Assembly (NCBI GenBank): GCA_019414325.1
Contig: DXMG01000003.1
Coordinates: forward strand, 28,271-92,270
DNA from: Collinsella sp.
GTDB taxonomy: Bacteria; Actinomycetota; Coriobacteriia; Coriobacteriales; Coriobacteriaceae
Length of the DNA stretch: 64,000 nucleotides
Reading direction: 5' to 3'
Numbering within the stretch: the stretch's first letter is position 1; the number at the start of each line of letters is the position of its first letter. The notes under the pieces are model-generated. The model had not been told where the DNA came from and ran no database searches. It worked only from the letters and a program-made list of their open reading frames with translations. Position numbers and translations under genes: made by a program. Below are positions 6,778 through 49,400 of the stretch, in pieces.

Positions 6778-7242
6778 ATGGCGGATAACGAAGCGCTGTT
6801 TACGCCTGAGCTGGTGTTTTTTGATTGGGAGTATGCGACGCCGGATGAGGTGTTTGCGCGGCTCGAGGGCGAGCTTGCACCACGTGGCTACATTGCCGAC
6901 GGTTGGCTCGACGCCGTTCTCACGCGCGAGGATGCCTATCCCACGGGCCTTGCCATGCCGGCGGCAAACATTGCCATTCCGCATACCGATCCGGGGTTTG
7001 TGACCAAGCCCTATATCGCGGTGGTGAAGCCCACCGCGCCCGTGACATTTAACGCTATGGCTGGCATGGGCGCTCCGGTGCCGGCGCAGATCGTCATTAA
7101 TCTGGGCATCGCCGAGCCGGGCGGCCAGGTCGAGGCCCTGCAGGCGCTCATGAACATCTTTATGGACGCCGATGCCGCAGCCGACGTGCTCGGCCAGACC
7201 ACGTCCCAGGGCATGGTCGACGCCATCCGCCGTCATTTCTAA
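6778..7242 (+). CDS. PTS EIIA type-2 family protein (orphan)
   Basis: 154 aa with AIPHTDPGFV around the putative phospho-histidine. No EIIB/EIIC partner in the window. Confidence 0.65.
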   Translation: MADNEALFTPELVFFDWEYATPDEVFARLEGELAPRGYIADGWLDAVLTREDAYPTGLAMPAANIAIPHTDPGFVTKPYIAVVKPTAPVTFNAMAGMGAPVPAQIVINLGIAEPGGQVEALQALMNIFMDADAAADVLGQTTSQGMVDAIRRHF

Positions 7243-29018: not shown

Positions 29019-29059
29019 CTATTCCTCAAAACTGAAAAATTTTCGTTTTTGAGGAATAG
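29019..29059 (+). repeat. 41-nt AT-rich palindromic hairpin, copy 1
   Basis: CTATTCCTCAAAACTGAAAAATTTTCGTTTTTGAGGAATAG. Confidence 0.9.
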
Positions 29060-29104
29060 AATTAAGCCAGCTCGGCCTTTTGCGAGGTATATTCGTTGCA
29101 GAGC

Positions 29105-29145
29105 CTATTCCTCAAAACTGAAAAATTTTCGTTTTTGAGGAATAG
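29105..29145 (+). repeat. 41-nt AT-rich palindromic hairpin, copy 2
   Basis: Identical to copy 1. Ends 27 nt upstream of the ATPase start. Confidence 0.9.
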
Positions 29146-29171
29146 CGATAAAAGACCGCAGGGAGGCGCCA

Positions 29172-30368
29172 ATGAAACTCATCAATAGAACGTCATACAT
29201 GGACATGTTGACGAGCCTTATTGGCGTGCCGGACATCAAGGTCATAACGGGCATTCGCCGTAGCGGTAAGTCAAAATTGCTCGAGGCCCTCCGCGATTAC
29301 GTGGAGGCAAATCTGTCCAATTCGAATGTCATCCATATCAATTACAACCTCGACGAGTTCGAGGGCCTGCTCGAATATCATGCCCTGCTCGCCTATGTGA
29401 AAGAGCATCGAGTGTCCGACAAGCAAAACTTCCTGCTTATCGACGAGGTTCAGATGTGCGACGGCTTTGAACGCGCGATCAACAGCCTCCATGCATCCGA
29501 GCAGTACGACATCTTCATCACCGGATCGAACGCCTTTTTGCTGTCGAGCGATCTGTCGACGCTCTTTACGGGGCGCACGTTCGAGATCGAGGTTTTCCCA
29601 TTCTCGTTTGAGGAGTATCGCCTCTATAGTGACGAGGGCGAGGTCGATCGCGACTTCGATGAGTACGCGAGAACCGGCGGTATGTCCGGTTCTTACCCTT
29701 ATCCACTGCAGGAGCAGCGCTACCAATATCTCTCCAATGTCTTCAAAACGCTCATCGTGAGGGATATCGTGCAGCGGCATAACGTGAGAAACGAATCGGC
29801 ACTGCTGCGCATTGCCGTTTACATGATGGACAACGTCTCCAACATAACGTCGGCACGCACCATTACAGATGTTTTGAATGCGGATGGGCTAAAGATTACG
29901 AACAAGACGGTCGGCACGTACATGGGGTACCTGTGCGATGCGTTTGCCTTCTATAAAGTTCGTCGGTACGACATTCGCGGCAATAAATACCTTAAGAGCG
30001 GCGAGAAGTATTACCTGGCAGACCACGCGTTCAAATACGCACTGCTTGGTACACGTGATATGGATTGGGGACGCGTATACGAGAACATGGTGGCCATCGA
30101 GCTGCTGCGCCGCGGATACGAGGTATACGTCGGTGTGCTCTATAAAAAGGTAATAGACTTTGTAGCAATCAAGCGAAGCGAGAAGCTCTACATTCAGGTG
30201 AGCGACGACATCAACTCGGATAAGACGTTTGAACGCGAGATTTCGCCACTGCTGAGCATTGGCGATGCGTATCCCAAGATGATTCTTGCCCGCACGCATC
30301 ACGAGGCCACGGATCGCGATGGGGTGCAGATCGTGGACCTGGCGAGGTGGTTGTGCGGCGAGGCTTAG
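29172..30368 (+). CDS. AAA-type ATPase (AAA_14 + DUF4143-like architecture)
   Basis: Walker A GIRRSGKSKL and Walker B FLLIDEVQ. C-terminal block YYLADHAFKYALLG ... ENMVAIELLRRGYEVYVG is typical of this family. Composition looks lower in G+C. Confidence 0.7.
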   Translation: MKLINRTSYMDMLTSLIGVPDIKVITGIRRSGKSKLLEALRDYVEANLSNSNVIHINYNLDEFEGLLEYHALLAYVKEHRVSDKQNFLLIDEVQMCDGFERAINSLHASEQYDIFITGSNAFLLSSDLSTLFTGRTFEIEVFPFSFEEYRLYSDEGEVDRDFDEYARTGGMSGSYPYPLQEQRYQYLSNVFKTLIVRDIVQRHNVRNESALLRIAVYMMDNVSNITSARTITDVLNADGLKITNKTVGTYMGYLCDAFAFYKVRRYDIRGNKYLKSGEKYYLADHAFKYALLGTRDMDWGRVYENMVAIELLRRGYEVYVGVLYKKVIDFVAIKRSEKLYIQVSDDINSDKTFEREISPLLSIGDAYPKMILARTHHEATDRDGVQIVDLARWLCGEA

Positions 30369-30377
30369 CAAAAAAAT

Positions 30378-30420
30378 CCTATTCCTCAAAACTGAAAAAT
30401 TTTCGATTTTGAGGAATAGG
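30378..30420 (+). repeat. 41-nt AT-rich palindromic hairpin, copy 3
   Basis: CCTATTCCTCAAAACTGAAAAATTTTCGATTTTGAGGAATAGG. Starts 10 nt after the ATPase stop. The asymmetric loop has the same orientation as copies 1 and 2. Confidence 0.9.
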
Positions 30421-30454: not shown

Positions 30455-31228
30455 CTATCCCAGCTTCTGCATGCGGCGGTAGATTTCGCAGATGCCCTTG
30501 ATGGTGAGTTGCCCGTCGACCACGTCGAAGGCATCGGTCGAATCGGCGACAATGCCGGCGAGACCGCCCGTGGCGATAACGGTGGCGTCCTCGCGGCCCA
30601 GCTCGCGCTTCATGCGCGTGACCAGGCCCTCGGCCATGGCGGCGGCGCCCATCACGGCGCCGACCTTGATGCACTCTTCGGTGTCGCGACCGATGGCGTG
30701 CTCGGGCGCCTCGAGCGGCACGCTGGCGAGCTTGGCGGCTCGGGCGGCAAGCGCGTCCATGGAGATGCGGATGCCCGGCGCGATCGCCCCACCAATGTAA
30801 TAACCGTCCTCATCGATGACGTCGATATTGGTCGCGGTGCCAAAGTCCACCACGATTGCCGGCGCGCCGTAGAAAGTCTCAGCTGCGACGGCGTTGGCGA
30901 CGCGGTCGGCACCTACGGCCTGGGGGCGCGCCGCGCGCAGCTTGGTCACGGCGGCCGTCTGCGGCCCGATGACGATGGCGTCCGCCGCGATGCGGTCGGC
31001 CACGGCGTGCCACTCGCGCGAGAGCTGCGGCACCACGCCCGCAAAGGCGATCGCGTCAACCGCATCGAGCGAGAGGCCGTACATCTTAAAGAAACCCATC
31101 AGGCGCACGTGGATCTCGTCGGCGGTATAGGAGCGGTCGGTGGGCATGCGCCACGACTGCACCAGCTCGTCTCCGTCAAACAGGCCCATGGCCGTCTGCG
31201 TGTTTCCCATATCGATAGCGAGCAGCAT
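30455..31228 (-). CDS. coaX: type III pantothenate kinase
   Basis: Start trimmed from 31483 (that extension would overlap the tRNA) to the ATG at 31228. MLLAIDMGNTQT, VVDFGTATNIDV and IATGGLA motifs. Confidence 0.85.
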   Translation of the reverse strand: MLLAIDMGNTQTAMGLFDGDELVQSWRMPTDRSYTADEIHVRLMGFFKMYGLSLDAVDAIAFAGVVPQLSREWHAVADRIAADAIVIGPQTAAVTKLRAARPQAVGADRVANAVAAETFYGAPAIVVDFGTATNIDVIDEDGYYIGGAIAPGIRISMDALAARAAKLASVPLEAPEHAIGRDTEECIKVGAVMGAAAMAEGLVTRMKRELGREDATVIATGGLAGIVADSTDAFDVVDGQLTIKGICEIYRRMQKLG

Positions 31229-31424
31229 GTCTACTCCCGGTGTCGGCATAAAAGGACGCGCACCATTGTATACGTGCCATCGACGGCGCTCGGCTGTGAT
31301 TCGTTTACGGTGATAAGGGCTGAGAGGTTTAAATATGAAGGAATTATGCTCTACGAGATTTTCCTTGCCGTTTACCGAACTCCCACGTAATATTCTTTCT
31401 TGCGCACATGAGGCGCCCAGACAT

Positions 31425-31501
31425 TGCGGGGTGGAGCAGTCTGGTAGCTCGCCGGGCTCATAACCCGGAGGTCGTAGGTTCAAATCCTGCCCCCGCGACC
31501 A
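31425..31501 (+). tRNA. initiator tRNA-Met (anticodon CAT)
   Basis: 77-nt cloverleaf built by hand: 7-bp acceptor, D arm GAGC/GCTC, anticodon arm CCGGG-CTCATAA-CCCGG with three consecutive G:C pairs, T arm GTAGG-TTCAAAT-CCTGC, encoded CCA. The 1:72 pair is a weak U.G. Long identity with the E. coli tRNA-fMet core. Confidence 0.9.
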
Positions 31502-31510
31502 AGAACTTGC

Positions 31511-31540
31511 AGCTCGTCGGCCTAGCCGGCGAGCTTTTTG
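31511..31540 (+). terminator. intrinsic terminator after tRNA-fMet
   Basis: 10-bp stem AGCTCGTCGG/CCGGCGAGCT, 5-nt loop, then TTTTT. Confidence 0.75.
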
Positions 31541-31581
31541 TTATTCCGGGACCGTGTTTTTCGGTCCAATTCTCAGCCTCT

Positions 31582-31735
31582 CAAACAAAATCTCGATCTG
31601 TAACATCTAGACCCGATTTGGGCGGCTAGGTGTTACAGATTGAGATGTTGAGTTCCCGCCTGGACGGTTTGTCTAAATCTGTAACACGAGGGATGGATTT
31701 TGCCGAGTTGTTGTTACAGATTGAGATTTTGTTGT
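31582..31735 (+). mobile_element. ~155-bp double-hairpin element, unit 1 (CTGTAACA family)
   Basis: Two hairpins (31590-31646 and 31670-31727) with arms ATCTCGATCTGTAACA/TGTTACAGATTGAGAT. Outer TIR CAAACAAAATCTCGATCTGTAACA / TGTTACAGATTGAGATTTTGTTG. Confidence 0.75.
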
Positions 31736-31983
31736 TGCTCTCCTTTATGAGTGAATCTCGACTCTTTTTATTATGTGAGGCGGACGGGCTATCGATAATC
31801 ACGGGCCGGATGGATTGACTTGTCGATTGATAGACTCCAATTGGAAGGAGCTGCGACGACCCTTAACGATCCTTAACTAGAAACAGTGACGTCTTAAAAA
31901 CAATAAAGGGGCCGCTATGTAGGGGCCGTCTATACGATGCCTTTGACTTACACTTCTTTATGGAGCCATGTAAGGAGGCGGCA

Positions 31984-33426
31984 ATGCAGCAACCCATCGC
32001 GACAAACGATGTGATTCTATTTTCCACTCTCAGGGAGAATCAGTACTTCGATCGAAAGAGCGCCCGCAAGGATGACAAGGAGATTGCGAAGCATATTAGT
32101 GCATTCGCCAACTCGGCGGGAGGCAAGCTCGTTATCGGTATCGAGGATAATGGTGAGGTAACGGGCTTCAAGCGTAACGGCGCGCGCGACATTGAGAAAT
32201 TCGAGCGCGCTGCGCTCACGACTTGCACGCCAACCCCTATTGTCCGCAAAGACCGAATCCCCGTGGTCAATTCTTCGGGCGAGGAGGACTTCGTTCTCGT
32301 TTTGGACATCGATGCCTCGACCAACCACTCTGTTGCTCGCGTGAGCGACGGCGAGGTTTTCTTGCGGCAGGACGACAAGAGCGTGAGGCTCAGCCGCGAA
32401 CAGGTATTTGCCCTCGAGTACGATAAGGGGCAGAGAATCTTCGAGGACGAGCTTGTTGAGGATTCCTCCCTAGATGACGTGGACCATGAAGTGCTTGATC
32501 GCTACAAAGGGATTCTTGGAACCGAAGTTTCCGACGAGCAGGTCCTTAGAAGTCGTCGTTTTATGCGTGACGGAAAGCTGACCGTTGCTGGAGCCCTGCT
32601 ATTCGCGCTGGATCCGTCCGCGATGATGCCACAGGCGCGAGTCCGTGTCCTGCGCTACGACGGCGTCAAAATGGAGACGGGCGAGCGTCTCAACATCACG
32701 AAAGAACGAAGCTTCTGTGGGCCGCTGCCTAAGGTGATCCAAGACGCCTACGAACTCATCTCGAGCATGCTCCGCGAATTTCAGTTCCTGGGGCCCGACG
32801 GGAAATTCCAGACCGTGCCTGAGTATCCTGAGTTCGCCTGGTTCGAGGGCTTGGTCAACGCGGTGACACATCGCGACTACTCGTTCCGCGGCGACTACAT
32901 CCGGGTCTCGATGTTCGACGACCGTTTGGAAATCATCAGTCCAGGCGCGCTTCCCAATATCGTGACGCTCGACAACATGAGGACCACTCGTTACTCGCGC
33001 AACCCACGCATCGCGCGCACGCTGGTTGAATTCGGTTGGGTTCGGGAGCTAAACGAGGGCGTCAAGCGCATTTATACCGAGATGCAAAACTCTCTGCTCA
33101 ATGATCCGGTCTACACGGAACCTGATGGGGCAAGGGTTCAGCTAACGCTTGAGAACAATATCGTTGCCAGAACCGTAAGGAGAAGCGAGGCTCTCGAGGA
33201 CAAGGTATCACCGGAGGTGATCGCCTCATTGGGGGAGTATGAGCTCGCCGCCGTCAGGTTGGCCTTTGCGAACGGAAGGGTGACAGCAAGGGAGCTTGCA
33301 GCACACATCGGGAGAAATCGCCGCACAGCAAGCCGGGTGCTTGGTAAGTTAATTGAGGAAGACGGTCTGCTCGAATGGCACGGCTCATCCCATAACGACC
33401 CAAAACAGTTCTACACGATAAGGTAG
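31984..33426 (+). CDS. AlbA_2 (Schlafen-like) domain protein with HATPase_c_4-like domain and C-terminal wHTH
   Basis: ATG at 31984 follows AAGGAGG (the ORF track starts at 31960). ENQYFDRKSARKD ... ISAFANSAGGKLVIGIEDNGEVTGF matches the AlbA_2 pattern. NAVTHRDYSFRGDYIRVSMFDDRLEIISPG matches the HATPase_c_4 pattern. Confidence 0.65.
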   Translation: MQQPIATNDVILFSTLRENQYFDRKSARKDDKEIAKHISAFANSAGGKLVIGIEDNGEVTGFKRNGARDIEKFERAALTTCTPTPIVRKDRIPVVNSSGEEDFVLVLDIDASTNHSVARVSDGEVFLRQDDKSVRLSREQVFALEYDKGQRIFEDELVEDSSLDDVDHEVLDRYKGILGTEVSDEQVLRSRRFMRDGKLTVAGALLFALDPSAMMPQARVRVLRYDGVKMETGERLNITKERSFCGPLPKVIQDAYELISSMLREFQFLGPDGKFQTVPEYPEFAWFEGLVNAVTHRDYSFRGDYIRVSMFDDRLEIISPGALPNIVTLDNMRTTRYSRNPRIARTLVEFGWVRELNEGVKRIYTEMQNSLLNDPVYTEPDGARVQLTLENNIVARTVRRSEALEDKVSPEVIASLGEYELAAVRLAFANGRVTARELAAHIGRNRRTASRVLGKLIEEDGLLEWHGSSHNDPKQFYTIR

Positions 33427-33441
33427 GGTGGTCGATCTATT

Positions 33442-33525
33442 TCGCACCTCTGTCGCAGTAATGTCGCACCTCTGTCGCAGTAATGTCGCACCTCTGTCGC
33501 AGTAATGTCGCACCTCTGTCGCAGT
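33442..33525 (+). repeat. perfect 22-bp tandem repeat, ~3.8 copies
   Basis: Unit TCGCACCTCTGTCGCAGTAATG at 33442, 33464 and 33486, with a partial unit at 33508. Begins 16 nt after the AlbA_2 gene stop. Confidence 0.9.
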
Positions 33526-33562
33526 GGCTTCGATGACGCGTGGATATAGTCCCTCGGCAAAT

Positions 33563-33714
33563 CTCAAACAAAATCTCAATCTGTAACGGGTAGGGGTCAA
33601 AAGCGGGCCTAGATGTTACGGATTGAGATTGTTGAGGATGGGCCGAGGGGAATGTCTTGATCTGTAACACGAGGGACGGATTTTGCCGAGTAGCTGTTAC
33701 AGATTGAGATTTTC
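33563..33714 (+). mobile_element. ~155-bp double-hairpin element, unit 2
   Basis: Hairpins 33572-33630 and 33654-33710. The left end TCTCAAACAAAATCTCAATCTGTAAC nearly matches unit 1. Confidence 0.75.
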
Positions 33715-33720
33715 TGGCAG

Positions 33721-33880
33721 GCGGGTTTGGTTTGTCTCAATCTGTAACAGGTAGGGGTCAAAAGTGGGCCTAGCTGTTACAGATCTAGATTGTTGAGGAT
33801 GGGTTGAGAGGAATGTCTCGATCTGTAACAGGTAGACCCCGGTTTTGCTGAGTAACTGTTACAGATCGAGACAAACCCGC
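33721..33880 (+). mobile_element. ~160-bp double-hairpin element, unit 3
   Basis: Hairpins 33734-33790 and 33815-33872 (the latter a perfect 16-bp stem). Outer TIR GCGGGTTTGGTTTGTCTC ... GAGACAAACCCGC. Confidence 0.75.
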
Positions 33881-34007
33881 TTTTGGGCTCACCCCATCCA
33901 CCCGCCGCCACCTGATATTCGCCGATTTCCGTTGCGCCACTGCGCTCCCATGCCATATCCTCTAGACAACTACGCGGCAACATCGCCGCCGCGCCTATAA
34001 GAGAGGA

Positions 34008-36044
34008 ATGTCCATGACCGCACCTGCATCCAAGCTGCTCCAGCCCATTACGGTTGGCCCCCTTGAGCTCAAGAACCGCATTATGTTCCCGCCGCTGACC
34101 ACCGGCTACGAGGAGCGCGACGGTTCCATCGGCGAGCGTAGCCTGGCCTTTTACGAGCGCCTGGCCCGTGGCGGCGTGAGCTACATCGTTATTGGCGACG
34201 TTGCTCCCGTTATGACCGCAAGCCCCACGCCCAAGTTGGCGACCGACGCCCAGATCCCCACGTTTAAGGCGCTGGCCGACGCCGTTCACAAGCACGGCGC
34301 CAAGGTCGCGCTGCAGCTGTTCCACCCCGAGTACGACGTGCCCGGTGTCGGCCGCATGGTCATGGGTTCCATGGCCGCCGCCAAGGCAGCGCAGGAGGCC
34401 AAGGCCGCCGGCGACGAGGAGACCTTCGCCGCCAAGATGGCCGAGTCCAACGAGATCCGCAAGCAGGCATATGCCAAGCTGCACCACGACATGCAGCACT
34501 TTGTGAACGAGGCGAGCGTAGAGCAGCTCACCCAGATCAAGGAGGCCATCGCTGCCTCGGCCGCCCGCGCGCAGCAGGCCGGCATCGACGCCATCGAGGT
34601 CCACGGCGACCGTCTGGTGGGTTCGCTGTGCTCGGCCATCCTCAACCAGCGCACCGACGAGTACGGTGGCTCGTTCGAGAACCGCGTTCGCTATGCGCTC
34701 GAGGTTGTCGCCGCCATTAAGGAAGCCGCGCCGCAGCTGATGGTGGAGTACAAGCTCCCCGTGATCATGGAGAACCCCGACGGCACGCCGCGCGGCAAGG
34801 GTGGCCTGCAGCCCGACGAGGCCTGCGAGTTCGCCAAGCTGCTCGAGGGCGCGGGCATCGACATGATCCAGGTCGCGCAGGCCAACCACACCGGCAACAT
34901 GGGCGACACCATTCCGCCCATGGGTGCCATGCCCTACAACTGGACGCTGCCGGTGGCCGAGCGCGTCAAGGCCCTGGTCTCCGTGCCGGTGGCCACCGTC
35001 GGCCGTGTTGTTTCGGTCGAGGCCGGCGAGAAGATTCTTGAGGACGGCGCGGCCGACATTATCGCCTATGGCCGCTCGCTCATGTGCGACCCCGACATTG
35101 CGCTGAAGGCCGCCACGGGCGAGCCCATCCGCGAGTGCCTCAACTGCAACAAGGGCTGCGTCGACGCGATTCAAAACCGCAAGTACATCTCGTGCGTGCT
35201 CAATGCCGAGAACGGCGACGAGGCGACCATCGCCATTAAACCGGGTGAGGGCGACAAGAAGATCGCCGTGGTGGGCGGCGGCATCGCCGGCCTGGAGGCC
35301 GCGCGCGTGGCGGCCAAACGCGGCTACGACGTGACCGTCTATGAGGCGAGCGATCACTTGGGCGGCCAGATTGTGCTGGCGGCCGCGCCTCCGCGCAAGG
35401 ATGAGATTATGCGCTCGGTCGAGTATTACGAGAAGATTCTGCCCGGCCTGGGCGTGAAGGTCGAGCTCAACCACACCGCTAGCCCCGCGGACCTCAACGC
35501 CGCCGACGCCGCGATTGTGGCCGTGGGCGCGCACGACGTGGTCATCCCCGTTCCGGGCGCCGACTCGGAGAAGGTCGTCTCGAGCTGGGACGTGCTGGCC
35601 GGCAAGGTGGAGCTTACGGGCCGCGTCGCCGTCATCGGCGGCGGCCTGGTGGGCACCGAGACTGCCGAGTACCTGCTGCAGCACGGCTGCGAGGTGGCGA
35701 TTGTCGAGATGCTCGACAAGATTGCCGCGGGCGAGTCCGAGACCATTCTGCCGCTGATCATGAGCGACTTTGCCGAGCACAACGTGGAGCAGCACGTGAA
35801 GACCCGCCTGACCGCCATTACCGACGAGGGCGTTGAGGCCATTTGCACCACCGAGGACGGCGCCGAGGAGCCGGTGAAGATCGCCTGCGATTACGTGGTG
35901 ATGGCCGTGGGCTCCAAGGCCAACGCGTTTGACCTGGACGGCGTAACGGTGCCCGTGACCTGCGTGGGCGACTGCTCGGGCGAGCGCACCGCCGATATTG
36001 CGAGCGCCATCCGCACGGCGTATCACGCGGCCAACGAGCTGTAG
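34008..36044 (+). CDS. OYE-like FMN / FAD-NAD(P) two-domain oxidoreductase (2-enoate / 2,4-dienoyl-CoA reductase family)
   Basis: N-terminal Oxidored_FMN pattern (LKNRIMFPPLTTGY ... GVSYIVIGDV), Cys cluster CLNCNKGC and C-terminal Rossmann folds IAVVGGGIAGLEAA and VAVIGGGLVGTE. Confidence 0.8.
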   Translation: MSMTAPASKLLQPITVGPLELKNRIMFPPLTTGYEERDGSIGERSLAFYERLARGGVSYIVIGDVAPVMTASPTPKLATDAQIPTFKALADAVHKHGAKVALQLFHPEYDVPGVGRMVMGSMAAAKAAQEAKAAGDEETFAAKMAESNEIRKQAYAKLHHDMQHFVNEASVEQLTQIKEAIAASAARAQQAGIDAIEVHGDRLVGSLCSAILNQRTDEYGGSFENRVRYALEVVAAIKEAAPQLMVEYKLPVIMENPDGTPRGKGGLQPDEACEFAKLLEGAGIDMIQVAQANHTGNMGDTIPPMGAMPYNWTLPVAERVKALVSVPVATVGRVVSVEAGEKILEDGAADIIAYGRSLMCDPDIALKAATGEPIRECLNCNKGCVDAIQNRKYISCVLNAENGDEATIAIKPGEGDKKIAVVGGGIAGLEAARVAAKRGYDVTVYEASDHLGGQIVLAAAPPRKDEIMRSVEYYEKILPGLGVKVELNHTASPADLNAADAAIVAVGAHDVVIPVPGADSEKVVSSWDVLAGKVELTGRVAVIGGGLVGTETAEYLLQHGCEVAIVEMLDKIAAGESETILPLIMSDFAEHNVEQHVKTRLTAITDEGVEAICTTEDGAEEPVKIACDYVVMAVGSKANAFDLDGVTVPVTCVGDCSGERTADIASAIRTAYHAANEL

Positions 36045-36159: not shown

Positions 36160-36492
36160 GCTCCGGTGGATGGCAATGCGCGGTAATCATGAGGAGTAAG
36201 GACGTCTACTGCCTTGCCGATTGCTCAAAATTATTGGGGGAGGGGTTAATAACTATATCCTCTATGCCAAAGGACATAAAGAGATGTCAATTTTGTTGAC
36301 AAGCGAATGACGATTAGCTGCGAGCCAGCTACCAGCGTAAATAATCGATAAAGAAATGTCGTAAATTGGTGCCAAATGCCCAGATGCCGCCGTGCGATTT
36401 TCAATTAACTGTTACGCGCAAACAGCAAAATGCTACTATCTAACATGCACGTAAGAAAGCAGATTAACGGTTAAGGCTAAGAAGTGGCAGGT

Positions 36493-36888
36493 ATGTCGGA
36501 AGCAACAAGGACTCGCACGCATGCGCCCGAGGTTAGGCAGCGCGCCGTCGAGGTCCTCCAAGAGGGGGTCGGTCATCGCGCCCTCGCCGCGGAGCTCTGC
36601 ATTCCCCAGGCCACGGCTCGTCAGTGGGCCCGCGCATATGCCGTGGGCGGTGCCGACGCCGTTCTCAACGCCGGTTCGCATCATCACACCTATTCGTACG
36701 AAGTTAAGCTCGCCGTGGTCAAGGACCGCTTGGAAAACGGCTTAACGGTTCGCGAGGCCATGATCAAGCACAAGATTCCTAGCGAGTCTTCGGTCAAGGC
36801 TTGGTGCCGTCAGTACCGCGAGAGCGGTGAGTCCGCACTGGTCGATAAGCCGCGCGGTCGCAAGCCGCGCGTTAAAAAGGCGGAATAG
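36493..36888 (+). CDS. orphan helix-turn-helix protein resembling an IS3-family OrfA
   Basis: About 131 aa with two HTH-like segments (GHRALAAELCIPQATARQWARAY; TVREAMIKHKIPSESSVKAWCRQY). No DDE OrfB follows and I saw no terminal inverted repeats. Confidence 0.5.
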   Translation: MSEATRTRTHAPEVRQRAVEVLQEGVGHRALAAELCIPQATARQWARAYAVGGADAVLNAGSHHHTYSYEVKLAVVKDRLENGLTVREAMIKHKIPSESSVKAWCRQYRESGESALVDKPRGRKPRVKKAE

Positions 36889-46400: not shown

Positions 46401-49400
46401 TGCCCGCGAACGCGAGCGTGACCAATGATGCCAAGGGCAAGGTCGACTTTGGCAAGATTACCTTTACGCTCGACGACCTTAACAAGGCTCTGGGTGAGAA
46501 GTCCGAGAAGCGCGAGCACACCTTTACCTACACCGTGACCGAGTCCGGCGAGGTCGCTGGCGTGACCAACGACGCTAAGCCGTCGCGCGAGGTTTCCTTC
46601 ACCGTGACCGATGACTGCAAGGGGAATCTGCGCGTATCCCGCAAGCCGGACGGTGATGCGGCCTTCACGTTCACCAATACCTATAACGTGACGCCTGTCG
46701 AGACGAGCGTCACCGAACAGATCACCGCGACCAAGGTCCTGACCGGCCACGATCTCAAGGATGGCGAGTTCTCCTTCGAGCTCGTCGAGGGCGACAAGGT
46801 CGTCGCTACCGGCACCAACGCCGCCGATGGCACAATCGTCATGGACAAAATCACTTACGATAAGCCCGGCACTCACACCTACAAGCTGCGCGAGAAGCTC
46901 CCCAACGAAGCGGGGCTGAGCAACGGGATTACGTACGATAAGACGAACTACACCATCAAGACGAGCGTCATCGACAACGGCGACGGCACGCTTAAGGTGA
47001 CCCATACGCCCGAGGGCACCAAGCCGGCGCGCTTTGAGAACAAGTACAACACTGCCCCGAACGAGTCCAGCGTTACCGACCAGATCACCGCGAAGAAGGT
47101 CCTGACCGGCCGCGACCTCAAGGCCGGAGAGTTCTCCTTTGAGCTCGTCGAGGGTAACGATGTCGTCGCCAAGGGCACCAATGCGGCCGACGGCAAGATC
47201 ACGATGGACAAGATCACCTACACCGAGGCCGGCGAGCACACCTACACGCTGCGCGAGGTCAAGGTCGACGCCGACAACGGTATCACCTACAGCACCGCGG
47301 CCTACACCATCGTGACCGCCGTCACCGATGATGGCAATGGCAAGCTCACGGTTAAGCATGAGCTGCAGGACGTCGAGAAGGCTGTCTTCGAGAATGCCTA
47401 CAGCGTTACTCCGAATAACTCCAGCGTCACCGACCAGATCACCGCGACCAAGGTTCTGGACGGACGCGACCTCAAGGCCGACGAGTTCTCCTTCGAGCTC
47501 GTCGAGGACGGCGAGGTCGTCGCCACCGGCGCTAACGACGCCGATGGCAAGATTACCTACACCGCCGCCGGCAAGCACACCTATATCCTGCGCGAAGCCA
47601 AGGGCGCCGAAGGCAACGGCATTACCTACGACAGCACGACCTACACCATCGTGACTACCGTTACTGATGACGGCAATGGTAAGCTCACGGTCAAGCACGA
47701 GCTGCAGGGCGCCAACGAGGCGAAGTTCAACAACAGCTACAAGCCGAATCCTAACGAGTTCAGCGTCACCGACGAGATCAAGGCGAACAAGGTCCTGACC
47801 GGCCGCGATCTCAAGGACGGCGAGTTCTCCTTCGAGCTCGTCGAGGGCGAGGGCGAGGATGCCAAGGTCGTCGCCACCGGCAAGAACGCCGCCGATGGCA
47901 AGATCACGATGAGCGCCGTGAAGTACGACAAGGCCGGAACGCACACCTACACGCTGCGCGAGGTCAAGGGCAACGCCGGCGGTATCACCTACAGCGATGC
48001 CAAGTTCACCATCGAGACCACCATCACGGACAACGGCGACGGTACCCTCAAGGCCGAGCATGTCCTGAAGGACGCCGAGGCTGCGACCTTCGAGAACACC
48101 TACAGCGTGACCCCGCTCGATGCAGAGCTCGACTTTGACCTGAACAAGGTCATCAGCGGCCGCGACTGGACGGATGGGGACGAGTTCAGCTTTACCATCA
48201 CCGCCCCCGAAGGCGCCCCGCTGCCCGATCCTGCAACCGTAACCGTGAGCAAGCACGATGCGAAGGATGGCATCGCTGCCGTCAAGTTCGGCAAGATCCG
48301 CTACACGGCTGCCGGAACCTACACGTACGAGATCCGCGAGAACGCGGGTAACGCGGCCGGCATGGCGTATGACGGGCATGTCGCGACCGCCGAAGTGACC
48401 GTGACTGAGGACGGCGAGGGCAAGCTGACCGCCAATGTCACCAAGAAGGAAAACGGACGCTTCACCAACACGTACCGCACTGAGCTTAACTACACCGCGG
48501 CCGGCGGCCTCAAGCTCAGCAAGAGCCTCTCCGGACGTCCTATGACCGAGGGTCAGTTCACGTTTACCGTGACGCCTGCCGACGAGGCCTCGGCCAACGC
48601 GCTTGGCCTGCTGCCCGGGGCCAACAGCTTCAAGTCCCCCGAAGCGGCAGAGGCAACGGTCGGACTGATCGACATTCTGGCTGGTCATGAGGTTAAATTT
48701 ACGCAGGCTGACGCCGGCAAGACCTTCAAGTACACCGTGGCCGAAAAGAACGACGGCCAGCCCGGTTACACCTACGATGACGCCGTACGCACGGTGACGA
48801 TCGCCATCGCCGACGACACCGCCGGTACGCTCTCTGCTACGACGACCGTTTCCGGTGGTCCCGAGGGTACGCATACGACGGTCCACAAGAGCGGTGAGAA
48901 CAAGGTCGAGAGTGCCCTGGTCCCGTTCCACAACAGTTACAGCGCTACGACCAATACGCCTGGTGGTACCGCTGCTCAGGTTGTCGCCACCAAGACCCTG
49001 ACCGGTCGCCCGATGGTCGACGGCGAGTTCTGGTTCGGCATCGCCTATCAGGGTGAGCTTGTGGCATACGAAAACCTCAAGCCCAATATCGGCGGGCACG
49101 TGAGCTTTGATACGCTGCACTACGACACTAAGATGCTTGCTAATCTTGAGGCTGCTGGGCTTGCTTATCGTACCGATAAGGACGGCAAGCTTGCCTGGAC
49201 CATTAACTACACGGCTTACGAAGATTTATTCGGGCTGCCGAATGGCGTTTCCGCTACAACGTGGAGCTTTGGCTTTAAGGTTATCGTCGTCGACAACGGT
49301 GACGGTACCCTGACGGCGACGGTCGACTACGGCGGCGTCGAGCCCTTGTTCGAGAACGTCTACGGCGCCGACGCCGTGGATGCCGCGCTCACCGGTACTA

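Follow-up and report, generated by a model that had tools for sequence, protein, structure and literature searches.

A Schlafen/AlbA_2-like gene with a predicted cognate DNA array within a REP-like hairpin array beside the initiator tRNA gene of Collinsella

We analysed a stretch of 64,000 nt from Collinsella sp. (assembly GCA_019414325.1, contig DXMG01000003.1, positions 28,271-92,270 of the forward strand), which we call the window and whose own positions serve as coordinates below; comparison loci from other genomes, taken as 8-kb excerpts, carry L-numbers. The interval between the initiator tRNA gene and a gene for an OYE-type reductase is a variable slot 3' of the initiator tRNA gene in a Collinsella (aerofaciens group) chromosome. 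Two unrelated things are overlaid in this slot, a resident array of hairpins and a compact accessory gene unit, and the latter combines a gene for a 480-aa protein with a perfect tandem array of 22-bp repeats just after the stop codon. The reading that we favour on balance is that of a defence-type gene carrying a putative cognate DNA docking array, in a layout somewhat like that of the prophage protein BstA and its aba element. An earlier note on this DNA, made from the letters alone, had named the initiator tRNA gene, an AlbA_2/HATPase_c_4/winged helix-turn-helix (wHTH) gene of 480 codons and a perfect 22-bp array of ~3.8 copies, and each of these is present in the sequence (ARAGORN, Pfam and Tandem Repeats Finder (TRF), respectively).

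The coding sequence lies on the forward strand at 31984-33426, within an open reading frame (ORF) that spans 31960-33426; the likely start is at 31984, where AAGGAGG precedes the start codon by 5 nt, and a -10-like TTACACT is found ~33 nt before the ATG. At ~0.55, the G+C content of the gene is lower than that of its flanks (0.65-0.70), as the earlier note had perceived. Pfam assigned residues 26-144 to SLFN_AlbA_2 (PF04326; 72.7 bits, cut-off 25.3, 4.8e-20) and residues 311-396 to the GHKL-like HATPase_c_4 domain (PF13749; 72.1 bits, cut-off 26, 4e-20), and the wHTH models HTH_Crp_2, HTH_IclR and HTH_24 matched below their Pfam cut-offs. In an AlphaFold2 (AF2) model (pLDDT 85.2, pTM 0.71), the C-terminus comprises helices at 418-430, 435-442 and 446-458 followed by a beta wing, which is the arrangement of a winged helix-turn-helix. 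The nearest structure is PDB entry 3lmm, both by sequence (4.6e-11) and by Foldseek, which aligned it over the full length (9e-21); Foldseek also retrieved the N-domains of SLFN13/11/14/5/12 at ~1e-4, MarR-type wHTH folds at ~1e-2 and, weakly, histidine-kinase and PDK ATPase folds at ~0.02. Residues E18, K25, E54 and D55 are invariant and D23 nearly so (alignments A1 and A3). Variability is concentrated in two regions, the linker at 396-418 and the helix at 441-458, with column entropies of 1.5-1.6 bits as against 0.6-0.8 elsewhere; among 21 non-redundant homologues, the helix averaged 1.54 bits and the catalytic domains 0.59-0.77. Based on this entropy and on helix 446-458 of the AF2 model, codons 441-458 (33304-33357, forward strand) are predicted to encode the wHTH recognition helix.

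The tandem array occupies 33442-33525 of the forward strand, starts 15 nt past the stop codon and consists of 3.8 copies of a 22-bp unit with 100% matches and an 11-bp sub-period (TRF), each unit joining the 11-bp half-sites TCGCACCTCTG and TCGCAGTAATG. The motif has no other copy in the 64-kb window. An array follows the stop codon in all three genomic contexts examined, and 1.8, 2.8 or 3.8 copies are found among near-identical genes. Across 73 loci with proteins 61-100% identical, the 150 nt after the stop codon reached a median tandem-repeat score of 28, vs a median of 5 and a maximum of 10 for upstream controls, and the low downstream scores came mostly from frameshifted genes. The repeat unit is TCGCACCTCTG / TCGCAGTAATG in the clade of 100% protein identity, TCGCACCTATT in that of 84-88%, GTCGTAGCTYT in that of 81-83%, CCTTGTCGTA at 79%, CTCTGTCGGAC at 68%, and GGTTCGAGTA, AACGGAGTAG or GCATAGTAGG at 61-64%; GTCGTAGCTTT is found, like CCTTGTCGTA and GGTTCGAGTA, in the arrays of other clades, and in more distant clades the repeats are often split into two clusters separated by 60-90 nt. 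The helix and the repeat change together, in that RRTAS occurs with TCGCA, QRTAT with TCGTA, QRSAT with TCGGA, VKVSR with TCGAGTA and PTLCA with ACGGAGTA. This pattern points to the array as the probable cognate DNA site of the predicted wHTH domain. The same idea had been put forward in the earlier note and is strengthened by the retention of the array beside the gene and by its change with the helix; the term iteron, in its replication sense, is not supported.

Homologues down to ~40% identity each have their own array, in Coriobacteriia, Streptococcus, Fusobacterium, Negativicutes and Erysipelotrichia. In Streptococcus dysgalactiae (L225, a plasmid record), ~24 copies of the 10-bp unit GGATACAGTA lie between the psrA invertase and a DEAD-box helicase gene, and in S. 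respiraculi (L226) ~16 copies of TTTATTGTAG begin at the stop codon, a LexA-like repressor and an integrase lying on either side. Fusobacterium vincentii (L227) has two clusters of CTAGTA-type repeats between ORFs that look by eye like hsdM and hsdS; Sporomusa (L233) has 6.2 copies of a 77-bp unit adjoining an integrase; Thomasclavelia (L234) has two clusters of three TGCGAGGT among AAA_13, FRG and DUF1016 genes; and Phascolarctobacterium (L236) has ~8-10 units of CTTGCAAC at 10-11-bp spacing, which a terminator follows. In Faecalicoccus, a 21-bp array of three copies instead precedes the start codon by 60-115 nt and overlies the promoter region. The periods of all these arrays (10, 11, 21, 22 and 77 bp) are multiples of ~10.5 bp. 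A scan of IMG/VR with a profile of the family returned three loci only, at ~60% identity, and these too have two-cluster arrays.

This distribution bears on whether the array is a neutral variable-number tandem repeat produced by slippage, its place amid the hairpins being a coincidence of two neighbouring intergenic repeats. The array does vary in length, from 1.8 to 3.8 copies among near-identical genes, and to that extent a description of it as length-variable noise, which the earlier note had considered, is correct; hairpin arrays, moreover, also bracket housekeeping genes such as Nramp. Neutrality, however, does not fit an array that stands beside the gene across three phyla and down to ~40% protein identity with sequences specific to each lineage, nor upstream controls that show nothing comparable, and the two hairpin clusters are demonstrably one array that was split by an insertion (below). 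The conservation of the array across phyla makes a neutral origin very unlikely, and we give it only the slimmest chance.

The array might alternatively act as RNA, with a 3' untranslated region that inhibits a Schlafen-type RNase, in the manner of a type III toxin-antitoxin (TA) system, or that controls the stability of the mRNA. Wherever a terminator is visible (L133, L174, L214, L236), the array lies between it and the stop codon and so is co-transcribed, the core motif keeps a constant orientation relative to the gene across clades, and Schlafen domains are RNases. On the other hand, the periods of 10, 11, 21, 22 and 77 bp fit the helical repeat of DNA, the part of the protein that tracks the repeat is the wHTH recognition helix rather than the AlbA_2 domain, the Faecalicoccus array is upstream, over the -35 region, and thus probably untranscribed, and the array of the window is unstructured as a single strand (z = -0.95). 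In ToxIN-like type III TA systems, repeats of 34-45 nt lie upstream of a ToxN/AbiQ-type RNase gene with a terminator between them, and ToxI-type repeat units are far longer than 10-11 nt, which also counts against an RNA role; here, units of 10-22 nt stand downstream of the gene, which encodes a protein of another family. With the repeats in helical phase, the wHTH helix variable and the Faecalicoccus array upstream, an RNA role is weakened, and we regard it as unlikely.

A further alternative assigns the array to a mobile element, either as arm-type sites of an integrase or as replication iterons with the protein as a Rep-like initiator. The size and phasing of the repeats are iteron-like, and the gene family does ride on integrase elements, in which the array sometimes falls between the gene and the integrase gene (L226, L202). 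The downstream arrays nevertheless start 0-35 nt past the stop codon, while their distance to the right attachment site (attR) ranges from ~100 nt to 2 kb; they persist where there is neither att site nor integrase (the window, L133, L158, L227); and their sequence differs by clade, whereas the att core is constant. Within 33427-33570, moreover, no A+T-rich unwinding region or DnaA boxes were seen, and the protein has no match to a Rep family in Pfam. Because the position of the array is fixed relative to the gene and not relative to att, this alternative is weakened, and we consider it improbable.

Returning to the array as a cognate site of its own gene's product, we infer that the protein binds DNA and probably works as follows. 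The accessory unit comprises its own weak promoter, a ribosome-binding site (RBS), the 480-aa protein and the tandem array directly after the stop codon. The C-terminal wHTH would bind the phased repeats on one face of the helix, such that several protomers dock beside the gene as an oligomer, and this DNA site would regulate, tether or silence the protein or keep the Schlafen-type nuclease/ATPase latent. On replicating elements, the array could mark self, in the way aba does for BstA, and the protein would most likely be an effector of abortive infection or of back-up defence, as other prokaryotic Schlafen proteins are.

The prophage protein BstA acts by abortive infection and is neutralised upon replication of a DNA element that lies within its own locus and is specific to the variant; this element, aba, needs its terminal direct repeats and acts as DNA (PMC8585504). 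The resemblance lies in a single defence-type gene, often on prophages, with a short variant-specific DNA element in or beside its locus. In contrast, the BstA protein is unrelated, aba is a single 63-bp element that overlaps the start codon rather than a phased array after the stop codon (PMC8585504), and the Collinsella array persists in chromosomal islets that do not replicate, such that the likeness is confined to the layout and the variant-specific sequences. A specific silencing or self-immunity role of the array is accordingly graded here as a tentative proposal, with the odds against it. Equally speculative is its extension to a widespread Schlafen/AlbA_2-GHKL-wHTH subfamily of Actinomycetota, Bacillota and Fusobacteriota, many of whose members reside on prophages and tRNA-fMet islands, as a two-part system, in which the array would dock and silence the protein as a "DNA antitoxin" or self-marker, the effector would be freed against foreign DNA that lacks the array or upon attack on the host chromosome, and an element would be immune to its own copy only. 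Such a control principle, DNA-based self-recognition, has so far been documented for BstA/aba.

Several findings weigh against a defence gene paired with a cognate array. Shared ancestry is a confounder of the joint change of helix and repeat. Homologues of at most 35% identity (phages Squirty and Nymphadora; Azospirillum, Rhodothermus, Rhizobium) have no clear tandem array, and neither do distant paralogues in the same genomes, which indicates that the module belongs to the subfamily of at least ~40% identity and not to all of COG2865. The array is perfect in chromosomal mini-islands that do not replicate, which a pure aba-like self-immunity does not predict and which argues for a constitutive role, e.g., autoregulation or tethering. 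PADLOC-DB v2 gave no system-level match, the best being positions 42-447 of a prokaryotic Argonaute (pAgo) model of 1121 positions that includes a fused Schlafen module, and NCBIfam has no model for the 480-aa protein. Of the database checks that the earlier note had proposed, the Pfam one thus bore out AlbA_2 and HATPase_c_4, whereas PADLOC recognised no system. Two phage homologues were also noted: in Mycobacterium phage Squirty (L231, 23611-29957), gp31 is a 35%-identical, full-length homologue annotated as a RecG-like helicase that lies between the integrase genes gp34/35 and a RelA/SpoT-like pair, gp29/gp30, and no tandem array follows it; a Gordonia phage homologue, gp38, likewise adjoins an integrase gene and has no clear tandem array.

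A defence role of the gene is plausible, as the earlier note had surmised for a single-gene system. The neighbours of homologues include GmrSD_N and MmeI-type restriction-modification (RM) genes, the hsdM/hsdS-like ORFs (by eye), AAA_13/FRG/DUF1016 genes or the integrase-side region of a prophage. A 2026 paper describes clusters in which Schlafen+ATPase+DNA-binding homologues accompany BREX, RM and type I CRISPR loci, and states that prokaryotic Schlafen domains can be defence tRNA nucleases; it gives no mechanism for these homologues and characterises only the Cash (Csx15-Schlafen) proteins (PMC13462974). The COG2865-type proteins with this composition, namely DIP2311 (3lmm) and those of the clusters just mentioned, resemble the Collinsella protein in domain order, fold and RM/defence neighbours. 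Unlike the present case, a cognate tandem array beside the gene is not mentioned for the defence-associated clusters in the passages searched, and a limited literature search found no description of arrays beside such genes. As far as these limited searches show, the gene-plus-cognate-array module is an undescribed variant of defence genes with a cognate DNA element. Proteins of the Schlafen+ATPase+DNA-binding architecture are common in defence islands, and within the limited literature searched no mechanism has been described for them; the co-variation of array and helix would supply a predicted DNA ligand for every variant and hence a cheap experimental handle.

We also compared the locus in which the unit resides. 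The initiator-type tRNA-Met(CAT) gene lies at 31425-31501 on the forward strand (ARAGORN; Rfam tRNA model, 63 bits), shows by its sequence the initiator features of a CGCGGGG start and a GGG/CCC anticodon stem, and marks an integration hot spot; its intrinsic terminator (31511-31535, forward strand) is identical to one that follows an attR-like tRNA fragment in L177. Beyond it stand hairpins H1 (31589-31649) and H2 (31670-31730), and after the gene and its array come H3 (33572-33632) and H4 (33653-33713), then H5 (33733-33793) and H6 (33814-33873), downstream of which the OYE-type reductase gene extends from 34008 or 34014 to 36044. The comparison of the coaX / tRNA-fMet / OYE locus that the earlier note had recommended revealed a presence/absence polymorphism: seven related species (L026, L047, L063, L083, L095, L102, L118) lack window positions 31731-33561 or 31731-33654. 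Their empty coaX / tRNA-Met / OYE loci are 89-95% identical to the window, align with it up to 31730 and resume at 33562 or 33655 (blastn; junctions read). The segment that is present here and missing there (31731-33714, forward strand) runs from 253 nt of DNA preceding the gene, through the coding sequence and its 22-bp array, to a 36-nt linker and the hairpin pair H3-H4.

At the empty sites, the hairpin array is unbroken and reads H1-H2-(H5)-H6 with no gene. H1 and H2 are 0.90-0.94 and 0.82-0.96 identical to hairpins e1 and e2 of the seven empty loci and are their orthologues, and H5 and H6 are orthologues of the last empty-site hairpins, which makes these four the resident units. H3 and H4 form an extra pair that either came with the insertion or was made by it: H3 is nearest to H5 (0.84) and H4 to H2 (0.87), and H1 and H3 are ~0.73 identical. 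H2 is of the chromosomal type throughout and H4 deviates on both arms, which places the crossover within the shared TGTTACAGATTGAGATTTT. The exact 480-aa product was found in 3675 blocks of a public assembly collection, and in the ten placements shown out of these it always lies directly upstream of the OYE gene, with 1, 2 or 4 hairpins to the right of the gene and an array of 2.8 or 3.8 copies; for the same or a near-identical protein, 1, 2 or 4 hairpins stand to the right and 2, 3 or 4 to the left. Taken together, these comparisons make it very probable that an accessory gene unit was inserted in a resident REP-like array. The integration of a circle that bore a hairpin pair, an insertion that duplicated hairpin units and a deletion between H2 and H4 would all fit; a deletion of that kind in the relatives would look identical, which is a point against insertion.

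Two other hairpin arrays display the same polymorphism. In L035 and L043, a gene for a 368-aa AAA_16/ATPase_2 protein with a weak BrxC/D-like match is inserted in an array and flanked by a direct duplication of ~270 bp that covers a terminator, two hairpins and ~65 nt of the adjoining gene, and the empty loci L048, L070 and L078 have a single copy of the duplicated stretch. A gene is likewise present within a hairpin array in L065 and absent in L040 and L110. Long target duplication upon insertion has been described for restriction-modification units (PMC2853133). The likeness consists in a defence-type gene whose flanking direct copies correspond to one stretch at the empty site, for which the ~270-bp duplication of L043, the paralogous hairpin pairs of the window and the 41-nt palindromes of the AAA_14 islet described below are the cases in point; unlike the published insertions, the flanking copies in the window are old or heterologous (H1/H3 ~0.73, H2/H4 0.87).

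The earlier note had read the interval as cargo that a hairpin element delivered to a tRNA hot spot. Variable cargo and a hot spot are borne out by the seven species without the segment, and the hairpins as vehicle are not. If the double-hairpin units were a non-autonomous mobile element, such as a miniature inverted-repeat transposable element (MITE) or a REP-like one, with the gene as cargo, one could cite that the gene sits precisely within the array with a junction at the end of a hairpin arm, that two more loci have a gene present or absent in such arrays (L035/L043 vs L048/L070/L078; L065 vs L040/L110), and that unit 1 bears 22-nt terminal inverted repeats. Inverted ends of the MITE type are trivially present because each hairpin unit is a palindrome; neither a target-site duplication at the array borders (by eye) nor a related insertion sequence (IS) was found. 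Against such an element, the array exists already at the empty sites, the gene unit occurs in at least three other contexts without any hairpin, hairpin arrays stand genus-wide beside housekeeping genes with no recurrent transposase among the matches listed, and the ~270-bp duplication in L043 passes beyond the hairpins into the adjoining gene, which fits an insertion with long target duplication or Campbell-type recombination rather than the transposition of a hairpin element. Delivery by the hairpins is thus not supported, and we judge it improbable.

What the hairpins are was examined in the window and across the genus. The six hairpins between the tRNA and the OYE gene recur with a period of 80-81 nt and have arms of 15-21 bp (TCTCRATCTGTAACA / TGTTACAGATYGAGA). 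Their core, ATCTGTAACA (10 nt, at most 1 mismatch), was counted 14 times across the 64-kb window, with 12 of these in the interval; chance alone would give ~1.2 in the window, and none of 100 shuffles reached 14 copies. Folded as single-stranded DNA, the hairpins reach -8.7 to -19.3 kcal/mol (z = -4 to -9.4). Three same-orientation copies of a ~155-bp double-hairpin unit had been described previously; the six hairpins are indeed there, and unit 2 is only 63% identical to unit 1 (and 90% to unit 3). Nor do the loops come in two alternating types, as had been stated: that of H1 resembles the reverse complement of the H3/H5 type, and that of H6 differs from those of H2 and H4.

A pattern scan of one genome per species recovered the family at no fewer than 120 loci, nearly all in Collinsella, in arrays of 1-8 units. 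A set of 350 unique copies showed a paired 10-nt arm core in 92-100% and a loop of 25 nt in 346; the gap between cores is 35-36 nt, and the loop is found in both orientations (153 A-type vs 134 T-type). We observed that the 25-nt loop is as long as the true arm-to-arm spacer (25-26 nt) and varies in sequence with its length fixed, which means that the array amounts to a 15-nt motif whose orientation flips every ~40 bp; the array could adopt either of two registers when it folds. Genes flanking the arrays belong to 72 families, of which most are housekeeping ones (Nramp, oxidoreductases, EF-Tu-type GTPases, PTS, LacI, aconitase, glutamate synthase), and the matches listed include 47 convergent, 31 divergent and 36 tandem pairs of flanking genes. 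Within these listed matches, too, the 25 commonest Pfam families beside hairpin arrays include no transposase or integrase, and a Pfam census of 70 array-flanking gene families showed no recurrent mobility gene. The search for a hairpin-linked transposase that the earlier note had suggested thus covered at least 120 loci and found none that recurs, and no REP-associated tyrosine transposase (RAYT, Y1 type) flanked by hairpins was among the array neighbours of those loci. The sole Y1_Tnp gene met, in one strain (L123, 3234-3704), encodes an IS200-type Y1 transposase upstream of the locus; it is a plain IS200 copy flanked by neither the hairpins nor the 41-nt palindrome and lends no support to a RAYT/REP link. 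The arrays are sparse, and no further one was found in the 64-kb window, nor within 10 kb on either side of the gene in ten gene-bearing metagenome contigs.

These hairpins are dispersed intergenic, imperfect palindromes in large number, arrayed in both orientations, and they behave like a Collinsella-wide family similar to repetitive extragenic palindromic (REP) sequences and bacterial interspersed mosaic elements (BIME), with rapid change of copy number and a tendency to recombine. With the REP/BIME of Enterobacteria and Pseudomonas they share short palindromes dispersed between genes, often convergent ones, arrays in both orientations, variable copy number and the use of arrays as landing or recombination sites. 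Unlike those, they have a far longer unit with a strict period (15-nt arms, 25-nt loop, 80-81 bp), no RAYT/Y1 in the DNA examined, an unrelated sequence and a distribution restricted to Collinsella. A search of Rfam over 31000-34500 (E at most 1) gave the tRNA and chance matches to miRNA models only, which indicates that the hairpins belong to no curated RNA family, and because the arms are conserved as sequence and two variable stem positions are often mismatched, covariation gives no evidence for a selected RNA structure. A limited literature search found no description of them; a Collinsella-specific REP-like family is described here, and the idea of a hairpin vehicle is corrected. An integron/attC reading of the hairpins was rejected, as the interval lacks IntI, the arm GTTACAG misfits GTTRRRY, the arrays are tandem rather than one site per gene, and the gene unit moves without hairpins. 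In L081 (2034-2219), H1 is broken at the contig end by unrelated DNA with GGACACACATT(C/T)TGTCC repeats, perhaps the terminus of a repeated mobile element that entered the hairpin.

The gene unit itself is portable. In the window it spans 31755-33502 (forward strand), where 229 upstream nucleotides are joined with RBS, ORF and repeat array, and it recurs in other slots. An 88%-identical copy lies between a BPL-like gene and coaX, 26 nt past the upstream stop codon (L131-L136), and an 87%-identical copy comes after a GmrSD_N gene and is enclosed by two direct copies of the tRNA-Met 3' half (L137-L141); the DNA homology between the window and these slots extends from the RBS to the repeat array only (31969/31972-33498/33504). 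In L157 and L158, a 96%-identical copy closes, on the right, an island that stands left of the hairpin array and also includes an MmeI-type RM enzyme and a DUF4268 protein; there, 31755-33502 is shared at 90% DNA identity. In these two islands, 3-4 repeats of ATGTCCGGAAA and one inverted copy stand between the 22-bp and hairpin arrays (L158, 6640-6760; L157, 6620-6720 and 7390-7480), and L157 also has a truncated second copy of the 3' end of the gene with its array (7062-7236).

Most homologues with readable flanks (proteins 79-90% identical; scan of 80 metagenome loci) are located 100-600 nt downstream of a full tRNA-fMet gene and are followed by a copy of the tRNA 3' end, which begins at the anticodon loop and measures ~45-48 nt in most loci, several of them with the same terminator. 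A full tRNA upstream and at least 25 nt (up to ~48) of its 3' end downstream were found in L161, L163, L177, L180, L187 and L200, and this tRNA bracket has the form of an attL/attR signature, as judged by sequence. The island of L202 contains a 514-aa tyrosine integrase (Phage_integrase) adjoining attR, L216 retains an integrase remnant, and L121 and L127 bear an integrative and conjugative or integrative and mobilizable element (ICE/IME) with a 430-aa integrase at the same tRNA, where only a 3' fragment of the tRNA is left. In other strains, the same slot holds an integrase-bearing ICE/IME, a PP2C gene or an MmeI-type restriction island, which marks the coaX / tRNA-fMet region of this very common human gut bacterium as a hot spot where defence genes vary between strains. 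In L161 (2679-6750), two mini-islands stand in tandem at tRNA-fMet with one AlbA_2/HATPase_c_4/HTH (helix-turn-helix) gene each, the two genes being distant paralogues; the first has no obvious repeat array and ends within a pseudo-tRNA that ARAGORN calls as tRNA-Met.

The tRNA brackets and the integrases in relatives make the tRNA adjacency of the gene in the window meaningful. As the earlier note had it, the interval contains neither an integrase nor a second copy of the tRNA 3' end; with one tRNA 3' end, no attR and a position 230 bp beyond the tRNA, inside the hairpin array, the unit is not organised as a tRNA-targeted island. A tRNA-fMet integrative island is thus the likely origin of the unit and not its present state. 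The gene family would be carried by tyrosine-integrase elements specific to tRNA-fMet and by prophages; such elements would decay into integrase-less mini-islands of ~1.8-2.8 kb, and in this lineage recombination would have placed the unit inside the hairpin array, with the paralogous H3-H4 now on its far side. Since the unit lacks the tRNA bracket, its route into the array is reconstructed, which tells against this account. Integrase-less mini-islands at tRNA genes are known as cis-mobilizable elements (CIME), a name and set of properties that derive from ICESt1/3 of Streptococcus. The Collinsella mini-islands are CIME-like in that most related contexts are bracketed by a full tRNA-fMet and a 3'-half repeat and that related islands keep a tyrosine integrase; the window differs in having no attR copy and in the location of the unit inside a hairpin array.

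A second single-gene islet is found on the other side of coaX (29019-30419), where an AAA_14+DUF4143 gene (29172-30368, G+C 0.51) matches the PADLOC candidate PDC-S01 at 1e-143. A 41-nt near-perfect palindrome, CTATTCCTCAAAACTGAAAAATTTTCGTTTTTGAGGAATAG, which differs from the hairpins, stands at 29019 and 29105 to its left and at 30379 to its right. Relatives without the AAA_14 gene retain one or two of the CTATTCCTCAAAACTGAAAAATTTTCGTTTTTGAGGAATAG palindromes, and in other strains an 88%-identical AlbA_2 unit occupies the slot. Downstream of the OYE gene, a 134-aa HTH ORF (36484-36888) is weakly similar to the N-termini of IS3/IS630 transposases; because several relatives keep a 131-aa gene there, it is probably a resident regulator and not an IS fragment. 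Farther along the window, at 47202-47846, a 339-bp tandem repeat of 1.9 copies with 78% matches lies inside an apparent coding sequence.

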